Part shown: positions 28,318 to 39,636 of the stretch, in pieces
How the letters are laid out: the number at the start of each line of letters is the position of its first letter
How positions within the stretch are numbered: the first letter of the stretch is position 1
Source: Desulfobacterales bacterium
GTDB taxonomy: Bacteria > Desulfobacterota > Desulfobacteria > Desulfobacterales > UBA5852
Length of the DNA: 64,000 bases
Reading direction: 5' to 3'
Assembly: GCA_963674755.2 (NCBI GenBank)
Contig: CAXXVS010000001.1
Span: 384,001-448,000 of the forward strand
Made by a program: the position numbers and the translations under genes
The notes under the pieces: generated by a model
What the model was told of the DNA's origin: nothing
Seen by the model: the letters and a program-made list of their open reading frames with translations, nothing else
The model's database searches: none

Positions 28318-28614
28318 TTATGCCCCGATGAGTTTGACCAGCACACGTTTTTTCCGCCGCCCGTCGAACTCGCCGTAGAAGATCCGCTCCCAGGTTCCGA
28401 AATCCAAGCGGCCCTCGGTGATGGCCACGACGACCTCGCGTCCCATGATCTGGCGCTTCATGTGCGCGTCGGCATTGTCTTCGCCGACATTGTGCCGGTA
28501 TTGCTCCACCGGTGTATGGGGGGCCAGCTTCTCCAGCCAGACATCATAGTCGTGATGCAGACCGGATTCATCATCGTTGATAAACACCGAGGCCGTAATG
28601 TGCATGGCGTTGAC
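28318..28614 (-). pseudogene. yjbQ: 3' part of the host yjbQ (UPF0047) gene, split by the integrated element
   Basis: [18 protein letters not shown]...NADAHMKR...GEFDGRR; continues in frame from the 5' part at 39512..39636. Confidence 0.93.
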
Positions 28615-30202
28615 TAAGGCTATCATAAACGGCCTGAGAAAACTCAACCGACAGGCCCATTTCTTCGGCAAGCTGAACGGGATCTAAGCCCCCTTGCCGC
28701 AATAGTCCCTCCAAGCCGCCGAGCACGCCACGGATCGAATAGGCAACCTGGCCATCCTCGGTTTTCGACACATACACGCCCAGGCGTCTCCCCTCGGCAT
28801 CGTGGCCATCAAAAAAGGTTTGGACCAGCTTGCGTTTTTCTTCAAAGGTCATTTTGGCAATACGGCCCGGCCGGTTGAAAATCGATTCAAGCATCCGTTT
28901 GGCCAGGGTAGCCTGCTTTTTGATTTGCGCCTTTGTCGGGACGCCCTGGGTCTGAGTATCAATAGCCTCAACAGCGCTTTTTAGGGATTCAATCTGTTTG
29001 CGGATGGTGGTCATCCGCTCGGTGGCTTCCTCATCGGAGAGGATGCCCTTGCCTATGGCTTTGACAATGTTTTCCTTCTCGGCATTGGCAGTCTTCAATT
29101 CCTTTTGGAGGGTTTGCCGCTGGGCCAGCAGGCTATCAACCTTGGCGGTATCGGGAATGGCGCGGGCCAGGGCCGCCTCCAAACCGGTGGAATCTCCCGC
29201 GAGGGCAAACAGCTTAAAGAATACAGCCGTTTCAAGCTCATCCGCACGCACCCAGAAGCTCTCATCGCACTTCGCCTTACGCCCACGCGGGTGCCGGTAA
29301 TAGCTGGTGGTGGCGTGGTTAGTTTGGCCAAACATGGCATTGCCGCAGTCGGCGCAGAAAATCACACGGGATAAAAGGTATTTGTTTTTGTACTGGCCGT
29401 GATAGTAGGTCTTGTTAGCGGCGGCTCGCTTTTTGATCTTCTCGATGGTTTCCTCGGGCAGAAGCCGTGGAATTTTGATTATGACGGTTTCATCAACGGC
29501 AACCCGTTTAGCCCGATAGCGCACTTCCCAATTGTCGCCGCACCGTCTGGTCAGCGTTTTCCACAAGCTGACGTGATTCATCCCAAGGGTGGCGGCCAGC
29601 TTGGGGATTTGATCCCCTTGGAGGTAGCGCTCGGCGGCCCAGACTATTTTCCCTCGCTTTTCCTCATCAATACCCCAGGTCTCCGTCTCTTTATTGAAGG
29701 TGCGTCCGTAGGGAAGCTTGCCGCTGGTGGGCACGCCCCGTTTGGCGCGGGCGATGCGGTTGTTGATGGATTTGCGGGTTTGTTCCAGCGCCACAAATTC
29801 ATTGATTTCCGTCGCCATCCCAAGAAACAGGGTGTCCGCCGGTTTATAAAGATCGTACTCGCTCTGGCCGGCGAAAAACCGGACGCCGGCCTTGCGCAGG
29901 ATTTCCAAGCCCTGTTTGGAATTTCCGTTGTCACGGCTCCAGCGGGAGGCGTCGCACACAATCACGGCGTCAAAGCGGTCCCGGTCGGCATCCTTTAATA
30001 GCTGATCAAGCTTTTTACGTTCAAAGGTGGCGGTGGCATGTTCCTGGCCGCTGTAGCGCCAGGGGTCGTCAATAAGGTTACCGCCCAGGGCTTTGACCGC
30101 AGCGGTGATTTCTTCCTTTTGGGTCCGTAGCGATTCGCCCCTTTGGGCTTGGCCTTCGGTGCTCACCCTAACCAAGGGGGCGAACCGTAGTGATTTTTGC
30201 AT
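28571..30202 (-). CDS. Large serine recombinase (integrase)
   Basis: RVST catalytic Ser, DASRWSR, KLPYG recombinase domain, CADC zinc ribbon, coiled coil. Confidence 0.95.
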
Positions 30203-30217
30203 AGTGGCCTCCCCTGG

Positions 30218-30634
30218 TCATTCTCCGATAATTTTCACGAGCACCCGTTTTCTGCGCCGACCATCAAACTCACCATAGAAAATCCGTTCCCAGGTGCCGA
30301 AGTCCAAACGGCCGTCCGTAATGGCCACCACGACTTCACGCCCCATGATTTGCCGCTTCATGTGGGCGTCGGCATTATCCTCGCCAACATTATGCCGGTA
30401 TTGGGAAACCGGTTCGTGGGGGGCCAGCTTTTCCAGCCATACGTCGTAGTCGTGATGCAGCCCGGATTCGTCATCGTTGATGAAAACCGAGGCCGTGATG
30501 TGCATCGCGTTACAAAGTACGAGCCCCTCCTTAACGCCGCTTTCATCGATGCATTTCTGAACGTCGGGGGTTATGTTGATAAAGGCCCGCCGGGTGGGCA
30601 CGTTGAACCAAAGCTCTTTGCGGTAGCTTTTCAT
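30218..30634 (-). CDS. yjbQ: Element-borne intact YjbQ (secondary thiamine-phosphate synthase family, UPF0047)
   Basis: 138 aa, full length, highly similar in protein to the reconstituted host gene; 15 bp upstream of the integrase. Confidence 0.93.
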
Positions 30635-30778
30635 GGTTAAACCTCAATAGTTGGGCTTGGTTGGGGTTTAGCGCCGTCCAGATGCCTAAATCGGCTGCGT
30701 CAGATCGCGCAGGTTAAACGATCGCCAGGCGGCGCGAGGGGTTATATGAGCTAAAATCGGCCCTTAACCAGGGCGATG

Positions 30779-31468
30779 TCAGGCGTTGCCGCCCCAGAGG
30801 CCCTTGACCTGTTCGGCCAATTGTTCCTTTGTCACATCAGCATAAACAAGCGTTGAGGAAATGGAAACGTGGCGCAGTTGTTTTTGGACCGCACGCAGAT
30901 CCCGCTGCCGGGAATAAAGCTCAACGCCATAGGAGTGCCGCAGGGCATGAACGCTTTTGCCCGGCTCGTAAAGGCCGAGGCGGCGAAGGTATTTTTTGAC
31001 GATGAGTTGGATGGCCTGGGCAGTCCACGCCCCCCGCTGCCCGATGAAAAGGAAATCATCGGGGCCGGTGGGCTCGCTGCGGTCAGCCTTCCACCTGATA
31101 AAGGCTTTAAGGTGTTTTTTCAAGCTTTCCGGGATTACCACATGGCCGCTGATGCTGTCCTTCCCGTTGCGGACGAAAATAGCGCTCTCACCATAACCCG
31201 CCTTTACGTCCCCGCAGCGTAGGTCGGCCGCCTCGCTCACGCGCAACCCCGTTGATGTAAGCAAGTCCACCACCATCCATTCGCGCACAGCTGTCACACG
31301 GCCCTTTTGCTGACCCAGCTCAGCGGCATCCCGCACAGTACGACGCAGGAGGCGGATTTGTGGGGCGGTGAAATACTTAATGCCATCCACGTTGCGGGGC
31401 GGGCGCTTGGTTTGGACCGCCCGGCCGCGCAGGGCGCCTGGAAATGACACTACCTTTTGATGCTCCAT
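30779..31468 (-). CDS. Tyrosine recombinase (compact, catalytic-domain type)
   Basis: TGLRVSE (R), NGK (K), HALRH (HxxR), LRH, VYA (Y). Confidence 0.93.
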   Translation of the reverse strand: MEHQKVVSFPGALRGRAVQTKRPPRNVDGIKYFTAPQIRLLRRTVRDAAELGQQKGRVTAVREWMVVDLLTSTGLRVSEAADLRCGDVKAGYGESAIFVRNGKDSISGHVVIPESLKKHLKAFIRWKADRSEPTGPDDFLFIGQRGAWTAQAIQLIVKKYLRRLGLYEPGKSVHALRHSYGVELYSRQRDLRAVQKQLRHVSISSTLVYADVTKEQLAEQVKGLWGGNA

Positions 31469-31662
31469 GCCGGTTGCCTCCTTAATTTGATAAGTTTTCC
31501 TTTAAGTTTATGAGCAGTATTTTGCCAGGAAAGCATTGCCAGTTAAGGGTACGCAAATCACTTCTTAAAAGTTTTGGGGTAAATTATTTAGAGTTATAAG
31601 GCGACAAATGAGAGAAGTAAAGTAGTATTTAGAGCATATACCCGGACGGCTGTTTAGAATAT

Positions 31663-31699
31663 AAAAGGCGCCGCGAGATAGTGAAATCCCGGGCGCCTT
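31663..31699 (-). terminator. Probable terminator after the Lys/Ala-rich gene
   Basis: AAGGCGCC...GGCGCCTT stem followed by a T-run on the minus strand. Confidence 0.6.
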
Positions 31700-31717
31700 G
31701 TGCTGCTATGGGGGCGG

Positions 31718-32020
31718 TTACTTTGCCGGCGCCTCGATCTTGTAGGTGCCGGCTTCGGTTTTTTCCACCGTGCCGCCGCGTGCGGCAAGCTGCTTCAAAG
31801 CGTTGTAAAAAGTGCTACCGAATTTTTCCTTGATCTGCTTCATGGTAAAATTGCCGCTGGCCAAATGGGCTACCGCTTCGCTGGTCTTGCTGCCGGCGAC
31901 AAAACCAAAAATGTCTTTCTCCGGGGCCGGCTTGGCAGCGGCCTTTTTAACGGCGGTTTTGGTGGTGGCTGCTTTGGGGGCCTGGGCCTTGCTGTCTTTA
32001 GTGCTGGTTTTCTTCGCCAT
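31718..32020 (-). CDS. Small basic protein with a Lys/Ala-rich tail and probable winged-helix domain
   Basis: KKTSTK..KAATTK..KKAAAK tail; GSK...TMKQI...YKI C-terminal pattern; GAGGAG RBS. Confidence 0.7.
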   Translation of the reverse strand: MAKKTSTKDSKAQAPKAATTKTAVKKAAAKPAPEKDIFGFVAGSKTSEAVAHLASGNFTMKQIKEKFGSTFYNALKQLAARGGTVEKTEAGTYKIEAPAK

Positions 32021-32595
32021 GGTTTCTTCTCCTCGTTACGGTTAGGGGTTGTTGCCATTTGTGAATAGAAGAATAACGAGCTGTCAAAAAATGTCGAGGA
32101 GAATTTTCCTTTTTGGGAAGAATTTCTTCCGGCGGCGGGAAGTAATAGCCAATCCTTCCATAAAGGGGCTATCGCCAAAGAGGCATGTTCGGGCGAGCGG
32201 CGGCCTGTCGCGGCCGACATTGCGTTTCAAGCCAGGAGGCATGCAAGGGGTAGCGCCGCTGGGCGATAGCCCCGTGTCGGGCCTGTCGTTAAGCCGATCT
32301 GGCCGAAGAGGGCGGTCGGATGGCAGAAAAATACGAGACCGGCTCGGAAGGCATGAATCTGGCCGGCCCCATGCGTTTTGCCTGAATTTTTCAGCTATCC
32401 AGGCGAAACAGCATGATTCGCTCAAAAGATACTAAAGGACATCATTATGGGTAGCTGAGGATAATTGGTTGGCGTTTTAATTAATCGCTTTCCGTGTCTC
32501 TTTATTTCGTATATGGCTGTTCATTAGCTGGAATATCTAAGCGGTAGGTCAACATCAACTGCGGTATGGGCGCATAGCCTGAAAGGGGACAGGAA

Positions 32596-32853
32596 ATGAT
32601 GAAAGAAATAATCCGCCAGTACGACGTTGAAGATGGTCAGGGAGATAGATTACAGGTGATTGAATACAAATTAGAAGTTACCCTAAAAGAAGGCATCAGC
32701 ACGGCGAACTTTGTTAGTATGAAACGCAATTCGACATTTAAAGACCCTGAATCCAAGTACGCTTTAAGCAATGGTGAACGCGTCATTATGATTGACGATA
32801 ATACCTTTCAAACGCAAGATGAACCTGTCCGTCGTTTTTACATTAGGCGGTAA
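32596..32853 (+). CDS. Hypothetical protein
   Basis: 85-aa AT-rich ORF with a purine-rich RBS; the only plus-strand gene in the element. Confidence 0.65.
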   Translation: MMKEIIRQYDVEDGQGDRLQVIEYKLEVTLKEGISTANFVSMKRNSTFKDPESKYALSNGERVIMIDDNTFQTQDEPVRRFYIRR

Positions 32854-33149
32854 CCTCGCGGTTCGGTTGCGCGGCGGCAATAGGTAGAGTGGCTGCGCCT
32901 TGATCAGTTTTAATCCAATTTGCGAAATTTCTTTGTTTTTTCAGCGAGGGCTTGGGAACTTTTTGTTACTTTGCCAAAAGTCAACCTTATTCCATGCTTT
33001 GTCCTGGCAATTTTAGTGACTTTTCGGGATGCGTGCTCCGGTAGCTTATTTACGTTGTCTGTGTAATATGATTTCCCGATTTTTTTTAAAATCCCATCCT
33101 TGATTAATTGGTCAAAATCAATTGGCTTTGCCTCATAGTATGCATTATT

Positions 33150-35039
33150 GATGGCCGCGTAAAAAATCAGGCGGCCAATTTGTAGCTTTCTGGATATCTT
33201 CCCGACGAATTTGTCCAAGCGAAGGCAAATTCCACCAGAGCGGCCTGTAAACGTTCTTTGACACGATAAACAGCAGTCGTAATACGGTGATCAAGGCCCG
33301 GATTACCCTCTGCGGCCTTCATTCTGGCCCTGCGAACCCGGGCCGCCCGTAGCAGATTGAGCCCGGTGGCCTTCATTTTGGCACAGAAGCGCACCGCCGG
33401 CATGCCCCGAACCCGTAGCTTTTTGACCCCGGTGCGCCGATCATATTCGCTCATGGTGGCCTCCACACCGGCCCGCCAGCGATAGGTGTCAATGAAAGCC
33501 TCGCTTTTCTCGGCCTTGCGACGCACCGATAGGCGATATTGCTTTCCGCTGTAGCGCAGATAGTTCTTCTTTTTCCCAGGCTTGACCGGGCAATGACCCG
33601 CATGCGGACATCCCTGGCAAAGCGTGGAATCGAAGGCCGCGCTGTAACAATCGGTTTTCTTCTTGTGCTTCACCTGCTCGGGAACGTGACCCGCCGGACA
33701 GGTCTCGACATAGCCCTTGTCATTAAAGCTAAACGCCGTGAGCGGCTTGGACTCATTGCCCTTCTGGGTCGGGGCGACAAGGTCGACATCGGCCACTTGG
33801 GCCGTCTGGTGGTTACTGTCACTGCCGTACAAAGTGTCGGCGACCAACTGATCGGGCCCCACACCCCGGATCTTGGTATCGGCGATGGCCGGCACCACGG
33901 CCTCCGCATCGCTCTCGCAGGCGGGTTGAACTTCGACATGGGTAATCAGGTTAAGCGCCTGCTCTTTTTCATTGGCCTCTTCACTGCGGCTGAAGCTCTC
34001 CATGATCTGGACCTGATAGCCCTGGCCCTTGTGGCCGCTGTAGGTGGCCTCCGGGTCCGAAGGGTTTTGCAATGAGTCGGAGGGGATCTCGGCCGGCTTC
34101 TTTATCGTTACTTGGGGGGCACCGGCGGCATCGGTCTCGACATGGCATTGATCGGCGAGCACCCGCTGCATGAGCTTGTAGCTGTGCATGAAAGCCACCG
34201 CCGTTTGGTCCTTGAAGCCCTCGATCAGATCGAACAGATCATTGCTGACCCGTTTTAACGTCTTTTCCGATTCCGTGGGTTTAACCAGAGAAAAGGCGGA
34301 TAGGGCCTTCTCACCCCAGTAACGATCAATCACATCAGAAGCGATCGTATCGAACAGCTCTCGGTGGTGGCGTTTGAGATTGACCAGGAACTTGGCGATC
34401 GTGCGGCTGAAAATGGCAATACGGCCCAGCCGGCGCATGTTGGAGCGGATGTGTACCGAGTCGATGCGCTGGTTGGAAGGATCTACACCGAACACTTTGG
34501 CCAATTTGTCGGTGAGCTTTTCGAACATGACCCCGTCAATGCCATTTTCGGCCATCAGCTGGCGGGTCGACCACAGGGTCTTTTCGCTGACGTATTTGGC
34601 CTCGTCGCTTTCTTCAGTGATGTCCAGAGCATAATGCCACTGGAGGTTGTAGGCCAGCTGCTCGACGGCCTCGACATCGTTTAAATCCATGGTTTGCTGG
34701 AAAAGCATCACTCCCAGCAGGGTATGCAGTTCCTTGGTGGGCCGCCCTATGGCTTCAGTGAAGAAGGGTTTTAACAGATCGACGGGAAGTTCTCCGAGCA
34801 GATGCTGGCGGAACAACCCGGGCCAGCCCTCTTCGAGCATCCGGCGCCGTTTGGGGCTCAAATAGGCCCACGGGTCGAAGAGATGTTGCTGTTTGTGGTC
34901 TTTGATGCGAAGCATGCGATCTCCAGGATAACCATCTGTAATTGTTTGGTTTCCTGTAGCATGACGAGAAGAAAATGGCAAGCTGAAATTGGGCGTTTTG
35001 TTAAATAATTCAGGCGGATAGACTTTTTACGATGCCATC
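33150..35039 (-). mobile_element. Insertion sequence, 1890 bp (IS1182/IS5-like)
   Basis: Terminal inverted repeats GATGGCCGCGTAAAAAATC / GATGGCATCGTAAAAAGTC; 6-bp target duplication ATTATT at 33144-33149 and 35040-35045. Confidence 0.93.
33167..34915 (-). CDS. DDE transposase
   Basis: GRP motif, RIDSVH, DPEATY, ADTLYG, CP...C..C...C zinc motif, YRWRAGVEAT. Confidence 0.93.
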   Translation of the reverse strand: MLRIKDHKQQHLFDPWAYLSPKRRRMLEEGWPGLFRQHLLGELPVDLLKPFFTEAIGRPTKELHTLLGVMLFQQTMDLNDVEAVEQLAYNLQWHYALDITEESDEAKYVSEKTLWSTRQLMAENGIDGVMFEKLTDKLAKVFGVDPSNQRIDSVHIRSNMRRLGRIAIFSRTIAKFLVNLKRHHRELFDTIASDVIDRYWGEKALSAFSLVKPTESEKTLKRVSNDLFDLIEGFKDQTAVAFMHSYKLMQRVLADQCHVETDAAGAPQVTIKKPAEIPSDSLQNPSDPEATYSGHKGQGYQVQIMESFSRSEEANEKEQALNLITHVEVQPACESDAEAVVPAIADTKIRGVGPDQLVADTLYGSDSNHQTAQVADVDLVAPTQKGNESKPLTAFSFNDKGYVETCPAGHVPEQVKHKKKTDCYSAAFDSTLCQGCPHAGHCPVKPGKKKNYLRYSGKQYRLSVRRKAEKSEAFIDTYRWRAGVEATMSEYDRRTGVKKLRVRGMPAVRFCAKMKATGLNLLRAARVRRARMKAAEGNPGLDHRITTAVYRVKERLQAALVEFAFAWTNSSGRYPESYKLAA

Positions 35040-35413
35040 ATTATTAGCTATCGTTGTTATCATTTCTTCCTTGGTCCATTTTTTTGTGTCCTTATCATTC
35101 ATTTTTTCCCTCCACGTTTTAAGGAAGTTCCAGTTTAGCCATTATCTACGATACTGCGTTTGAATACAAATATTAATTTGGAAGCTTTTCTCAGGGTGAT
35201 GTTATTCTTTTCGTATGGCGAGGCGGCGGCGTGCCGCAATCGGCCAGGTATCTAAAGGCCAGTCAGCCAGGGGCTGCAACCCAATCAAGCTCAAGGGCGT
35301 TTGCTTGATTCCAATTCTGCCGGTAGGGAGTCCACTGGGGTTCGGTATTAGGGGCGTGGTTGGTTTTCACTTTCCTCCCCCCTTTTTCCTAAGAAAAATT
35401 ATTGTCAGGAAGG

Positions 35414-35742
35414 AGGGTTTTTAAGCGGTGCGGGCCGTTAGGTCCGCCGCGCAAAACCCTATTACAAACCCCGAAGGTCCTTCTTGTCTTGGGCCAAGGG
35501 GTTTAGGCACAAGGTAACAAGAAGGCCGAAGGGCGTTTGTGGCGAAGGGTAACTGGTCCATATAGTGGGCCTGGCTATCCGTAGCCTATTAGCTCTATTT
35601 TAAATAAAAAAAATATATAATAAATACAGTTAGATGTAAGATATAAAAATGAATTAGCGTATATTTTGCGTTTTATAAGTACCTGATATTACTAACACTA
35701 AAATATACGCAACCGTTTTTTGAAAATATACGCGTATATTTT
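35414..35742. other. Candidate replication origin of the element
   Basis: Two GC-rich hairpins, then a very AT-rich tract with four AAAATATACGC half-sites including a perfect 20-bp palindrome at 35723-35742. Confidence 0.5.
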
Positions 35743-35756
35743 GAAAACCTACCTCA

Positions 35757-36677
35757 TCACCGTAACTTCAGTCCTGCCAGCACTTCCACCCACTCCTTGT
35801 TATTTTTAACGTAAGGCTGGCGGTTGGAACCCCCTGCGCCGATGTTCCAAATCCCGATTGAAAGGTAGACGTCGTGGTAAGAGCCAAACCGGTGAAGGAC
35901 GCCCTTGTCGCTGAGTTCTCTCAGATAGTTTTTTGCAGTGACTTCCGCCAAGCCGACCGAGCGCGATATTTGGCGAGCAATGCCGTTGAAGCCGCCATCT
36001 AAGATCGCGTGTACTTCCCCTGCTGGTACATTACCCGCAGCTTGGCAAAGCTCCTCACATTTTTTCAGGTAGGATGTTTTTTGCCAAAAAAAGTTCATTA
36101 TATCGTCAAAGTGGATGTAACGTTCGCGCATCTCCGCTACTGGGTTTTGCCCGGTTGGGTTAGAATCTCTATCCCTCTTTTCCATCCATTTCATCGGAAA
36201 TTTTGATGGTTTGGCGTTTTTGATGGCTTGCTTTATCCACTGGCGCTTTTCAGCGTTTTCAAGCCATTTTTGAATGCCCTTCACCACAAAGTCCCTAATA
36301 ACGTGATCCCGGGTTTTGGGGTGAATGGGCATCTTGGGATTGGCGTATTCATCCAGGTATTCGATAAGCCAAACATCAAGTGTGTTGTGGAGTTCCAGAA
36401 TCAGCGGTTTGGGCAAGCCGTGGGGCCTTAGCGGGCGTTCATTAGCGCTTGATTGCGGAGTAATGGGTTGCTCAATATCATCAGCAATTTTTTCCGATGA
36501 CTGCTGCGGCTGCGCGGTAACGGACGGGAGAACGTGTTGTTCGGTGATTGGCTCATCGGTGGTGCTTGGGGGCAGGGTTTCCTTTGACAATAGCTCGGGG
36601 TTTGCTTCGAAAAAAGCTTTGGCCCTGTTTTGCGTCGCTGCCGGTCTTCCACGGCGGGGTGCGTAATCGCTATACAT
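35757..36677 (-). CDS. Hypothetical protein, possible replication initiator (C-terminal winged-helix-like)
   Basis: 306 aa; IARQISRSVGLAEVTAKNYLRELSDKGVL resembles an HTH; lies next to the origin-like tract. Confidence 0.55.
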   Translation of the reverse strand: MYSDYAPRRGRPAATQNRAKAFFEANPELLSKETLPPSTTDEPITEQHVLPSVTAQPQQSSEKIADDIEQPITPQSSANERPLRPHGLPKPLILELHNTLDVWLIEYLDEYANPKMPIHPKTRDHVIRDFVVKGIQKWLENAEKRQWIKQAIKNAKPSKFPMKWMEKRDRDSNPTGQNPVAEMRERYIHFDDIMNFFWQKTSYLKKCEELCQAAGNVPAGEVHAILDGGFNGIARQISRSVGLAEVTAKNYLRELSDKGVLHRFGSYHDVYLSIGIWNIGAGGSNRQPYVKNNKEWVEVLAGLKLR

Positions 36678-36711
36678 GGTCGTTCCCTCAACGATCTCCC
36701 TATGGTGGATG

Positions 36712-36764
36712 CCGGGGGAAGGGCGGTAGGGAGCCGCCTTTTCGGGAGCTACCCTATCCCCCGG
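36712..36764 (-). ncRNA. Candidate C4/CI-like antisense RNA (branched hairpin)
   Basis: Outer stem CCGGGGGA/TCCCCCGG; inner GGG-TAGCT-CCC and GGCGG-CTCCCTA-CCGCC; loop complementary to TAGGGAG sites up- and downstream. Confidence 0.55.
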
Positions 36765-36815
36765 ATAATCAGGTTCCTAAACCATTATTACAAAAAGCAA
36801 GTATCCTTTAAAAAA

Positions 36816-37013
36816 TCACCACTGCATCAGTTCGCGCGGCAGACTGCCTTCGTTTCGTTGGGCATTAGTGACGGCCTGTAATGCCGCGCGGATTTGTTCC
36901 CGCCGGGCGACGGTTTCAGCGGCCTGCAACAGCATCGTCAAGCTATTACGGGCCTTTTCAAGATTATCAACGGGGCCAATAAGGACCTCAGCTTCTTTCG
37001 GCAATTTCACCAT
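36816..37013 (-). CDS. Small hypothetical protein
   Basis: ATG at 37013 with AGGGAG RBS. Confidence 0.55.
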   Translation of the reverse strand: MVKLPKEAEVLIGPVDNLEKARNSLTMLLQAAETVARREQIRAALQAVTNAQRNEGSLPRELMQW

Positions 37014-37260
37014 GGTCAATCTCCCTATATTCTGGCCGTAATCTTTTAAGTTTGGTCTGGTTAAGCATCAGAAACCGGCTGTTTTCGGGGCAAAAAGGAA
37101 GCTCAAACTAAAAAGGAAATTTTTTGGGAAGGGCGGCCTGAGAGAATGCAATAGCCCAGGCCGCCCAGGTTGCCCCACGGCGATGGCAGGTCGCCGGGGG
37201 CGGGGCGTATGGTTTACGGGCGGCGCTGGTGATGCCGCCCGTAGGAGGACCGCCCCTGCC

Positions 37261-38247
37261 TTACGATTGGTCTAAAATTTTGGTCAAGCGATCAGCCAAG
37301 ACGGCTTTTTCATCTTTGAAACCCAAGCGGGCCAGGTGGGCGCGGCGGTTATGGGCAACTGTTTCGGCCAGCGCCGCGCGTTCACCAGCCGAATTTTTCA
37401 TCAAGTTTTGGATGCGTCGGCGCTCGGCCAGCGGATCCATGCACTTCCGGCTCCCGGTGCGCGCAAAAACCCGCTGGACCTGGGCTGCGGCTTCGCCAGA
37501 ATTTTCAAACCGGCGGGACTCGGTGCCGCTCGTCGGGGCAAAGCCCAGCCGTTCTAGCGGGCTGCGCTGCCGGGTATTAACCAGCCGGACGCTGGCGGGA
37601 CCTTTAGCGTTCTTGCGGGCGGCGGCAAGCTTGGCTTCAATGGCAGCCAGAGCCTTCCGGCGGCCGTTTTCAAAATGTTGTGACTGTGACATTTCTATAG
37701 CTCCTTTCGTGTTCAAAATTCTTACATCCCTTCCCGCACGGCCACGGCCTTCAGCGATCAGGGCAATGTGGTTAAACCTAAGCTGCGTTTGCAGAGCGTC
37801 ATAAACGGCGTTATTGAAAACGCCCGACTCAAAGATGGTTTCAGCCAAATAGGCCGCGCTGATTTCCGGCAATTCATCGGCTTCAATCGCTCGGATGGTT
37901 TCGGGGTCGGTGACCAGCAAATCACAGGTTAGGTAATCTCCGTCCAGCTTAGGGGTGCCGGCTACGCTGCCCACCGCATGAGCCTTAACCAGCTCCGGCG
38001 TCAACCAGGTGTGGTCGCCCGCTACGATGGGGATGCCCTCAAGGCTGCGCAGGGCCGCCGGGGATGCCATTTCATTACGAGTGACCAGCATGTTGAAGAG
38101 GCCCTGGCCGGGGGGCGGGTCATCCAATTCGAAGCGGTCATAGGGCATGATCCGTTCCGCGAGCACCCGCGCCCGGCAGCGTAGGAAACCGTCAGGGGTT
38201 TTCTCCCAGCGGGGGCGTTCCGCCTTGTTTGCATATGCGATTTTCAT
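37261..38247 (-). CDS. DUF2213-like phage head-assembly (protease/scaffold-type) protein
   Basis: KTPDGFL, SLEGIPI..DH, VGSV, EISAAY, NHIALI..GRAG.DVRI; helical basic C-terminal tail. Confidence 0.72.
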   Translation of the reverse strand: MKIAYANKAERPRWEKTPDGFLRCRARVLAERIMPYDRFELDDPPPGQGLFNMLVTRNEMASPAALRSLEGIPIVAGDHTWLTPELVKAHAVGSVAGTPKLDGDYLTCDLLVTDPETIRAIEADELPEISAAYLAETIFESGVFNNAVYDALQTQLRFNHIALIAEGRGRAGRDVRILNTKGAIEMSQSQHFENGRRKALAAIEAKLAAARKNAKGPASVRLVNTRQRSPLERLGFAPTSGTESRRFENSGEAAAQVQRVFARTGSRKCMDPLAERRRIQNLMKNSAGERAALAETVAHNRRAHLARLGFKDEKAVLADRLTKILDQS

Positions 38248-38606
38248 AATGCTTCTTCCTCCTTGGTTTCTTTGGGCATTGGGTACCGCTGCCGCAGGTC
38301 TTCAAGATCCCGCATCGGAATGGGGTGCGCGGGCGGCTTAGGCGGATCATCGCTAAAGTCCGCCCGTAACCGTTCCAGCATCACCTTCGCGCGGTCATCC
38401 ATCAGCTTGGGCAGGGGTGGGGGCGGTGTCCAAAGGCCGCGCTCCATCGCCCAAATTTCACGCAAGAGGGCATCCCGCTGGGCGGTATCCGTCACTACAC
38501 CCAGCAGCATTTCAACGCGGGTGCGATTGACGGTTAGGATGGCGACGGCCGGGGTTTTGCCTTTGGCCTCCTGTTCAAGCCATTCAATTCTTCTTTTCAT
38601 ATTCAT
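38244..38606 (-). CDS. Hypothetical protein
   Basis: Overlap-coupled to both neighbours; KRRIEWLE N-terminus. Confidence 0.65.
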   Translation of the reverse strand: MNMKRRIEWLEQEAKGKTPAVAILTVNRTRVEMLLGVVTDTAQRDALLREIWAMERGLWTPPPPLPKLMDDRAKVMLERLRADFSDDPPKPPAHPIPMRDLEDLRQRYPMPKETKEEEAL

Positions 38607-38818
38607 CCCTTATCCTCCCTTTGCAGGAATTGATCTTCCAAAGCGGTGATACGATCTTCAAGATCCCCGCGCTCAATGATGCCTTTCAGGATGTTGGCCA
38701 GGTAAGCCAGTTTGGAAGCCATGGCAGGTTCTATGGGGCCATTGCCCGGGTCGGCGCGGTTGATAAGCCCGGCCACGTAGCGCCGAATATCCGCAATGCT
38801 TTTCAGGCGACGAGCCAT
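38603..38818 (-). CDS. Small helical protein, possibly small-terminase-like
   Basis: AGGAGG RBS; C-terminal LEDRITALE coiled coil. Confidence 0.6.
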   Translation of the reverse strand: MARRLKSIADIRRYVAGLINRADPGNGPIEPAMASKLAYLANILKGIIERGDLEDRITALEDQFLQREDKG

Positions 38819-38914
38819 TACCTCCTAACCCCCATAGGAAAGTCTATTGAAATTAGAGAGATAACGCTTTTGTGATACTGAAAAGCGGCCCATTTGAGTG
38901 CGAAAAAAGGGCAT

Positions 38915-39169
38915 TTAGCGGCCTTGCTCCGGCTGCGCCAGATATGCGCTGATCAATTCCTCAATCTTCGCAGAAGCCGTTATCTCATCTTCCAGGCAGC
39001 GTACCTTGAACCGCTTCCACAGGGCGGCATCCACCTGTATCCCAATGTTGGTTCGAACCTGCTGGGGATACCGTTGCTTGAAATCGGCAATTTTTTCTTC
39101 GATTTCCCGCAACGCCTTTTGGCGGCCTCGCTCGTGGGCATCAGAGTTTTCCATCGCTTCCTCCATCAT
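38915..39169 (-). CDS. Ribbon-helix-helix DNA-binding protein
   Basis: TNIGIQVDAALWKRFKVRC...ITASAKIEELISAYL pattern. Confidence 0.7.
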   Translation of the reverse strand: MMEEAMENSDAHERGRQKALREIEEKIADFKQRYPQQVRTNIGIQVDAALWKRFKVRCLEDEITASAKIEELISAYLAQPEQGR

Positions 39170-39511
39170 ATATATTGGGTTATTTATAGAATATAGAATA
39201 TAATATATAATGTTACAGCTAAAGTAAAGCTCTTGGATGATATTAATAACAATTTAGGGTATTTGGATTCTTCTCCGGCTGTGGGCCGCTGTGGTCGCCA
39301 TAGTAAGGCGTGGGTTTTAGGGGTAGGTAGGGTGGCTATGCGGAGGCGAGCAGCCTGTGGCGGGCTAATGGGACAGTCACATGGGGAATCAGGGGGAGAG
39401 GTGGGGGCCAGGGGCGGCCCCCTGTACCGTTCAGTTCGGTAGGTCCTTCAGATCTTGCAGCAGCCCGGTCAATTCGAAGGGCATAGGATGATTAATAGCG
39501 TTTACTTGGCC

Positions 39512-39636
39512 TTGACCAGTGCGAGGCCTTCACGGATGCCGCTTTCATCGATGCACTGCTGGACATCCGGTGTGATATTGATGAAGGCCCGCCGGGTGGG
39601 CACGTTGAACCACAATTCCTTGCGATAGCTTTTCAT
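39512..39636 (-). pseudogene. yjbQ: 5' part of the host yjbQ gene
   Basis: [22 protein letters not shown]...EGLALV, then element sequence and a stop at 39502-39504. Confidence 0.93.

Follow-up and report, generated by a model that had tools for sequence, protein, structure and literature searches.

The window, i.e., the whole stretch of 64,000 nucleotides of Desulfobacterales DNA that was analyzed, contains a host yjbQ gene split by an integrated element, and the element encodes a large serine integrase whose open reading frame (ORF) spans the junction with the host DNA. The features of this locus are as follows (positions are those of the window).

28318..28611, minus strand: 3′ portion of the interrupted host gene yjbQ (Asn41 onward)
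28571..30202, minus strand: large serine integrase, integrated form, 543 aa (Pfam PF00239 and PF13408; conservation; AlphaFold model)
28571..28609, minus strand: host-derived tail of the integrated integrase, 12 residues and a stop codon in the +1 frame of yjbQ
28610..28611, minus strand: crossover dinucleotide AA of the integrase-side junction, inside the common GTCAA (28614-28610)
28612..28635, minus strand: integrase-side attP arm, which doubles as coding sequence for integrase residues ~523-530
28612..39513, minus strand: integrated element, 10,902 bp, within the host yjbQ (empty site in loci L172 and L171)
30218..30634, minus strand: intact cargo yjbQ, whose end lies immediately upstream of the start of the integrase; it matches the restored host gene at 127 of 138 aa and 338 of 414 nt
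30779..31468, minus strand: tyrosine recombinase of small size (229 aa) that likely resolves multimers
33148..35040, minus strand: insertion sequence with a DDE transposase; three more copies in the genome (98-100%), missing from the related element L009
37261..38247, minus strand: homologue of DUF2213/phage head maturation protease
38915..39169, minus strand: Arc-like regulator of the ribbon-helix-helix type, which on the circle lies downstream of attP
39431..39511, minus strand: stranded 3′ end of the integrase gene, with the second attP arm, a 26-residue circle-form tail and a stop codon
39464..39481, minus strand: motif conserved in the circle tails, with the sequence PFELTG in this element and F-x-[LIVMF]-x-G as the pattern of the family
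39512..39513, minus strand: crossover dinucleotide AA of the far junction, inside GTCAA (39516-39512)
39514..39636, minus strand: 5′ portion of the interrupted host gene yjbQ, with codons 1-41

Rejoining the two halves of the host yjbQ in silico yielded an intact YjbQ of 138 aa. In a genome of the same genus (G432, locus L172), both flanks of the element were continuous through an intact yjbQ, with identities of 92 and 87%. The sequence GTCAA is common to both junctions.

The integrase is encoded by a single-copy gene in the host genome. Its N-terminus matched the serine catalytic domain PF00239 (E 3e-17), and the recombinase zinc ribbon PF13408 was also found (E 2e-9). Among 58 integrase sequences, Ser14 was kept in at least 90%, the zinc ligands C283, C286, and H304 were invariant and C312 was present in at least 90%. 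A coiled coil was predicted at residues ~352-418 (helices 352-384 and 390-418 in the AlphaFold model), which together with the zinc ligands corresponds to a zinc ribbon with an inserted coiled coil. The recombinase domain PF07508 gave no Pfam match; helices and a hairpin were predicted at residues ~158-263, and the tblastn alignments to phage integrases covered this region. The best match among solved structures was the catalytic domain of TP901-1 (E 4e-12), and a search of the ESM Atlas returned unnamed clusters only. Scans for promoters and terminators gave no signal above chance level. In its catalytic serine domain, zinc ribbon with coiled coil, inverted att arms and 2-bp core, the integrase resembles those of SPbeta, A118/LI, TP901-1, phiC31, and Bxb1. 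The same traits are given for the canonical large serine integrases in PMC3556126, where the imperfect inverted att arms are ~50 bp long and orientation is set by the 2-bp core.

In the integrated state, the integrase ORF reads through the left junction into the 3′ remnant of yjbQ and stops in its +1 frame. When the two ends of the element were joined, the predicted circle-form integrase was 557 aa long, with 26 residues (39511-39434) in place of the 12 host-derived residues and a stop codon at 39433-39431. The crossover falls at integrase codon 531, downstream of the catalytic Ser14 and of every domain; a suicidal split of the catalytic domain is ruled out by this position. The phage integrases among the matches listed were 23-25% identical to the integrase, and their tblastn alignments ended at integrase residues 462-476. 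Given that these alignments end well before the crossover, both isoforms likely hold the full canonical enzyme, to which the tail would be an add-on. The AlphaFold model of the integrated form had a mean pLDDT of 82.8, and its host-derived scrap was disordered (pLDDT < 50 for residues 533-543). The first-pass annotation of this DNA had placed attP within the integrase gene and had proposed that the integrated ORF ends in an alternative frame of the yjbQ remnant and that the C-terminus changes between the integrated and excised states. The first two proposals hold for the window, as does the third for its predicted circle, and the first extends to the family (see below).

A protein search with the integrase found 784 relatives, and 120 were among the matches listed, many of which end in the same +1-frame scrap of yjbQ. 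We classed 142 loci (L007-L148) by the end of the integrase. In class A (25 of 142 loci), the 3′ half of yjbQ adjoins the integrase on the same strand, while in class B (49 loci) the 5′ half lies beside the integrase on the opposite strand; the rest belonged to neither class (28), were too near a contig edge (14) or had no readable integrase end (26). Junctions were mapped in 71 of the 74 class A and B loci, some elements being duplicated in these counts, and were not found in L030, L084, and L133. With duplicates included, the integrase frame spans the core in 70 of the 71 mapped relatives, and the exception is a frameshifted gene. Among the named hosts were Thermodesulfobacteriota, Planctomycetota, Bacteroidota, Spirochaetota, and further groups. 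Of 401 genomes sampled from the window's phylum, 3 had a member of the family, the window counted, and a search of viral contigs found no locus with a single-protein query and two with an alignment query.

The first-pass annotation had also centered attP on GT, and this claim fell. In the window alone, the GT and AA centers scored alike (11 and 10 of 26 symmetric pairs, respectively). Across 36 attP sites, the mean symmetry was 13.1 of 20 bp about AA/TT vs. 6.1 about the GT position, although the window's own attP, at 8 of 20, is less symmetric than the family mean. Only the AA/TT bases agreed in all 16 paired junctions, and the junctions of L009 also differ at the base after GT. GT is thus ruled out as the crossover, and the GT-centered repeat is a local coincidence. 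This correction leaves both predicted proteins unchanged, since any cut within GTCAA gives an identical 557-aa circle-form protein. All 71 mapped junctions lie at the AA of yjbQ Asn41, which in the integrase sense reads AA in class A and TT in class B. In a search for an attP/attB offset of 4-5 bp, the outer attP profile scored below zero on the attB halves for all shifts between -7 and +3.

AA went with co-oriented and TT with flipped insertion at 71 of the 71 mapped junctions. Given that orientation in serine recombinases depends on the 2-bp core alone (PMC3556126), the AA/TT core accounts for both insertion orientations. When the orientation label was placed on a tree of 61 rows, eight changes were counted, at least four of which were forced by strong branches, and none of 200 bootstrap trees allowed the label to change only once. 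It should be noted that in flipped insertions the junction is often directly followed by a stop codon.

Both isoforms were then found in natural sequences. L115 is a whole contig of 9,401 bp with a terminal repeat of 127 bp, i.e., a circle of ~9.3 kb, and its integrase contains a symmetric, TT-centered attP. The database protein P0154, known from the protein alone, differs from the L115 integrase at only one of the 557 residues before the junction (556 identical), past which it has a tail of the antisense-yjbQ type. Similarly, the two ends of the L120 element, its integrase end (98%) and its far arm (100%), are joined in L118, which may be a circle or a tandem junction. Both isoforms therefore occur in nature for two elements (L115/P0154 and L118/L120). 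Further proteins of the circle type are L138, P0056, and P0070. The circles could also stem from infection instead of excision. The AlphaFold model of the natural circle form L118 had a mean pLDDT of 77.5 and left the tail unplaced (pLDDT < 50 for residues 530-576), with only 5 of the 63 alignment rows carrying a tail.

For comparison of the tails, the far end lay at the same locus in 17 relatives, and 20 other regions were fetched, of which 17 gave an arm (none in L156, L157, and L158). The fetched far ends were paired as the complementary yjbQ half; 10 were on another contig and one lay at 0.9 Mb in opposite orientation. Arm symmetry across the fetched set was 9-18 of 20. The circle-tail set comprised 35 tails after the duplicates L072, L117, and L118, the frameshifted L045 and L070, whose junction is doubtful, were dropped; L070 was still included in the counts of attP symmetry, Gly codons and integrated tails.

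Conservation of an open circle-side tail in related elements, which the first-pass annotation had named as a check on its proposal, was borne out. All 35 circle tails were open for at least 14 codons, compared to 16 and 9 in the other two frames and to a mean of 22.5 and a maximum of 31 in shuffled sequences. The motif F-x-[LIVMF]-x-G, which was defined on the same tails on which it was tested, was found in 23 of the 35, compared to 2 and 1 in the other frames and to a shuffle mean of 0.24 (maximum 3 in 2000). After clustering at 50% identity, the motif was in 17 of 24 clusters, with 0 and 1 in the other frames. The remaining 12 circle tails, including that of the natural circle L115, were without the strict motif. 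In both att phases (1 and 2), the motif remains in frame with the integrase at varying distances from the core, and all four Gly codons are used in it (8, 8, 6, and 5), which indicates that selection acts on the protein. Its third codon positions vary, the commonest base accounting for 30-57%. Between the circle-tails of the window and L009, six differences were synonymous, one of them in the stop codon, and two were non-synonymous. A profile of the circle tails had no significant likeness to the integrase's own strand at residues 488-499 (probability 0.4%, E 0.15).

The integrated tails are short (1-22 residues, a single residue in 13 of 33), contain the motif in 0 of 33 and are wholly different between the two orientations, being whatever the host strand supplies. 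Among 162 database relatives, the strict circle-tail motif was found in only two. Taken together, these comparisons make it very probable that the circle-side tail is under selection. The circle tails range from 14 to 107 residues. The longest were found at the far ends L165 and L168 (for L014 and L026), where tails of 104-107 residues run well past the motif and possibly form an extra domain.

The elements also carry other genes. A cargo yjbQ, which replaces the split host gene, was carried by 10 of the 16 complete elements; across 57 loci, it was upstream of the integrase in 19 and directly adjacent in 12. Given that it contains the target codon, the cargo yjbQ could itself be a site for nested insertion. 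Each of the 16 complete elements had exactly one small second recombinase, a serine resolvase in eight and a tyrosine recombinase in eight, never both, as would be expected for multimer resolution on a replicating circle. A large-terminase family was found in nine related loci, and the window itself has only the head maturation protease homologue; these homologues suggest that the elements may be phage satellites. No ORF family was common to all 16 complete elements (2,029 ORFs of at least 45 aa from 65 loci). Consistent with the first-pass annotation, in which no obvious directionality factor was recognizable, none was recognized among the shared genes (ORFs of at least 45 aa). Such factors are small and so diverse that a sequence search cannot show their absence.

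We propose that the tail biases the direction of the reaction, i.e., that the circle tail promotes efficient integration and the tail-less form keeps excision, with no need for a separate directionality factor; we put the probability of this reading, which is drawn from sequence comparisons, at roughly 0.4. The serine integrase gene spans its own attP; the inserted copy ends in a short host scrap, and the circle would encode a conserved F-x-L-x-G tail. Given that a new circle can make only the tailed enzyme, the tailed form must integrate; given that a lone integrated copy makes only the tail-less enzyme, the tail-less form must start excision, if the element self-excises. Because the inserted copy takes any host scrap, the information would lie in whether the motif is there and not in the host tail. 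The motif is probably a tethered beta-strand or a short peptide that docks on the base of the zinc ribbon and coiled coil, where the directionality factors of other serine integrases act. In SPbeta, the binding sites of a separate directionality factor are on the zinc-ribbon domain and at the coiled-coil hinge (PMC11722253), and a tethered tail could reach this same surface. The fuller proposal is rather doubtful: that the detachable tail replaces the directionality factor by docking on this base and locking integration, that integration removes it to leave an excision-competent enzyme, and that the family repeatedly flipped its yjbQ insertion via the AA/TT core with the switch kept. Against a bias of direction stand the 12 circle tails that miss the strict motif and the unplaced tail in the AlphaFold model. 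In addition, a directionality factor may be hidden among the unshared ORFs or those shorter than 45 aa, and the second recombinase found in all complete elements could take part in excision.

The closest competitor, to which we give a clearly smaller share of belief, is that the tail acts as a brake on activity: it would be needed for full activity in both directions, so that integration leaves a weak or nearly dead enzyme and the element stays put, with excision rare or rescued by tailed enzyme from the first circle or an incoming relative. The same data on tail selection and the tolerance of any host scrap past the junction fit this explanation, as does the scarcity of the strict motif among database proteins, which would mean that circles are rare in assemblies; the archaeal suicidal integrases are controlled likewise, according to PMC8371274. 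However, the tail-less form retains the catalytic, DNA-binding and coiled-coil parts, and both natural states were seen for two elements. It appears improbable that the tail binds a partner, such as the cargo YjbQ, the second recombinase, a host factor or a protein of replication or packaging, and so couples integration to the state of the cell instead of acting on the integrase. Such binding would agree with a short motif in a region predicted to be disordered, with the frequent cargo yjbQ upstream of the integrase and with the small recombinase of every complete element, but no candidate partner is common to all elements and the motif persists in hosts from many phyla.

Two further explanations are, in our estimate, even less probable than partner binding. 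One is that suggested by the first-pass annotation, a stability switch in which one of the tails is a protease tag. An aromatic or hydrophobic motif in a flexible tail could be readable by a protease, and the class A integrated tails share a pattern. This idea loses strength in that the terminal residues are conserved in neither type of tail (the commonest last dipeptide occurs in 3 of 35 circle tails) and the motif is internal; the wide range of circle-tail lengths and the host-dictated integrated tails, with nothing in common between orientations, also argue against it. The other, of similar standing, is that there is no switch, the gene having drifted over attP, so that the tail signal reflects a constraint on DNA or a dispensable sequence. 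The first 20 bases of the tail are indeed the att arm, which is conserved as DNA, and the stretch before the junction is variable, being 34-81 residues from a G-V-Y-V-type strand. The motif, however, lies mostly beyond the arm, follows the reading frame in both phases and varies at third positions, and the window and L009 differ mainly at synonymous sites. On balance, we favor a bias of direction over these four explanations.

An attP inside an integrase gene is already known for tyrosine integrases such as those of Mx8 and SSV1; we found no serine case in print. According to PMC6070905 and PMC4383910, attP of Mx8 lies in the coding sequence of the tyrosine recombinase IntP, and integration creates a new 3′ end that leaves the enzyme active with altered behavior. 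As in Mx8, the attP studied here is inside the integrase gene, the tail is replaced and the core is kept. Unlike IntP, the integrase studied here belongs to the large serine type and has a 2-bp crossover; ~14-30 residues are swapped, among them a motif of five residues, the design is family-wide, and the target is a protein gene, yjbQ, entered in both orientations. The archaeal suicidal integrases (SSV1, pTN3, and pT26-2) also have attP inside the gene, and the integrity of that gene has been proposed to stand in for a directionality factor (PMC8371274). Those tyrosine recombinases lose a catalytic part on integration, in contrast to the integrase described here, in which the canonical domains stay on the integrated fragment. 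The canonical large serine integrases differ in that their direction is set by a separate factor, as stated in PMC11722253.

In its isoform swap, the integrase also invites comparison with a phage repressor. Mycobacteriophage BPs reportedly has an integration-dependent immunity, in which an att site within a phage gene swaps a C-terminal tail between the free and integrated states. The gene in BPs encodes a repressor and the tail is a terminal protease tag, whereas here it is an integrase with no conserved terminal tag. To our knowledge, attP lies outside the integrase gene in the canonical phage serine integrases (SPbeta, A118/LI, TP901-1, phiC31, and Bxb1). Literature searches found no serine integrase that spans attP, although the TIGER study of regulated gene integrity may list such cases, and no integrase that targets yjbQ. 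The listed rows of eight supplementary files of PMC10083194 contained no entry for yjbQ/UPF0047. The present analysis adds two element pairs in which both isoforms occur naturally, the recurrent AA/TT flips and a second recombinase that is of one type or the other.

Serine integrases are major tools for genome engineering; to steer their direction, a separate factor is normally required, and such factors are hard to find. Two isoforms made by the element itself offer a direct test of whether a short tethered peptide biases the reaction, and they may also yield a reversible integrase encoded by one gene. An integrase taken from a chromosome can be the clipped form; given the rarity of the strict motif among the database relatives, the wrong isoform would be assayed in screens based on cloning of the annotated gene. 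As the target is a yjbQ codon conserved across many phyla, it would make a broad-host landing site.

In addition to the split yjbQ described here, fragments of yjbQ were found next to full copies in other genomes of the same genus, i.e., G431 (C43, 55070-57846), G438 (C14, 169195-172780), G434, and G433, which suggests further insertions or scars at the yjbQ site. In G423 (C11, at 63561 and 122051) and G426 (C5, at 1819571 and 2746720), the yjbQ halves are far apart and oppositely oriented, which suggests that the chromosome was inverted through the insertion or after it. Apparent antisense insertions in genes other than yjbQ were found in L144 (~2480), L147 (~4030), L082 (~7840), and L049 (~1480), and in these the integrase again spans the junction. 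From their motifs, we take the targets to resemble dprA, dinB, radC, and an flhB-like gene, respectively. In L025 (10001-14326), the integrase ORF runs on in frame for ~4.3 kb into another protein, the end of which presumably resembles BREX PglX, judging from its motif.
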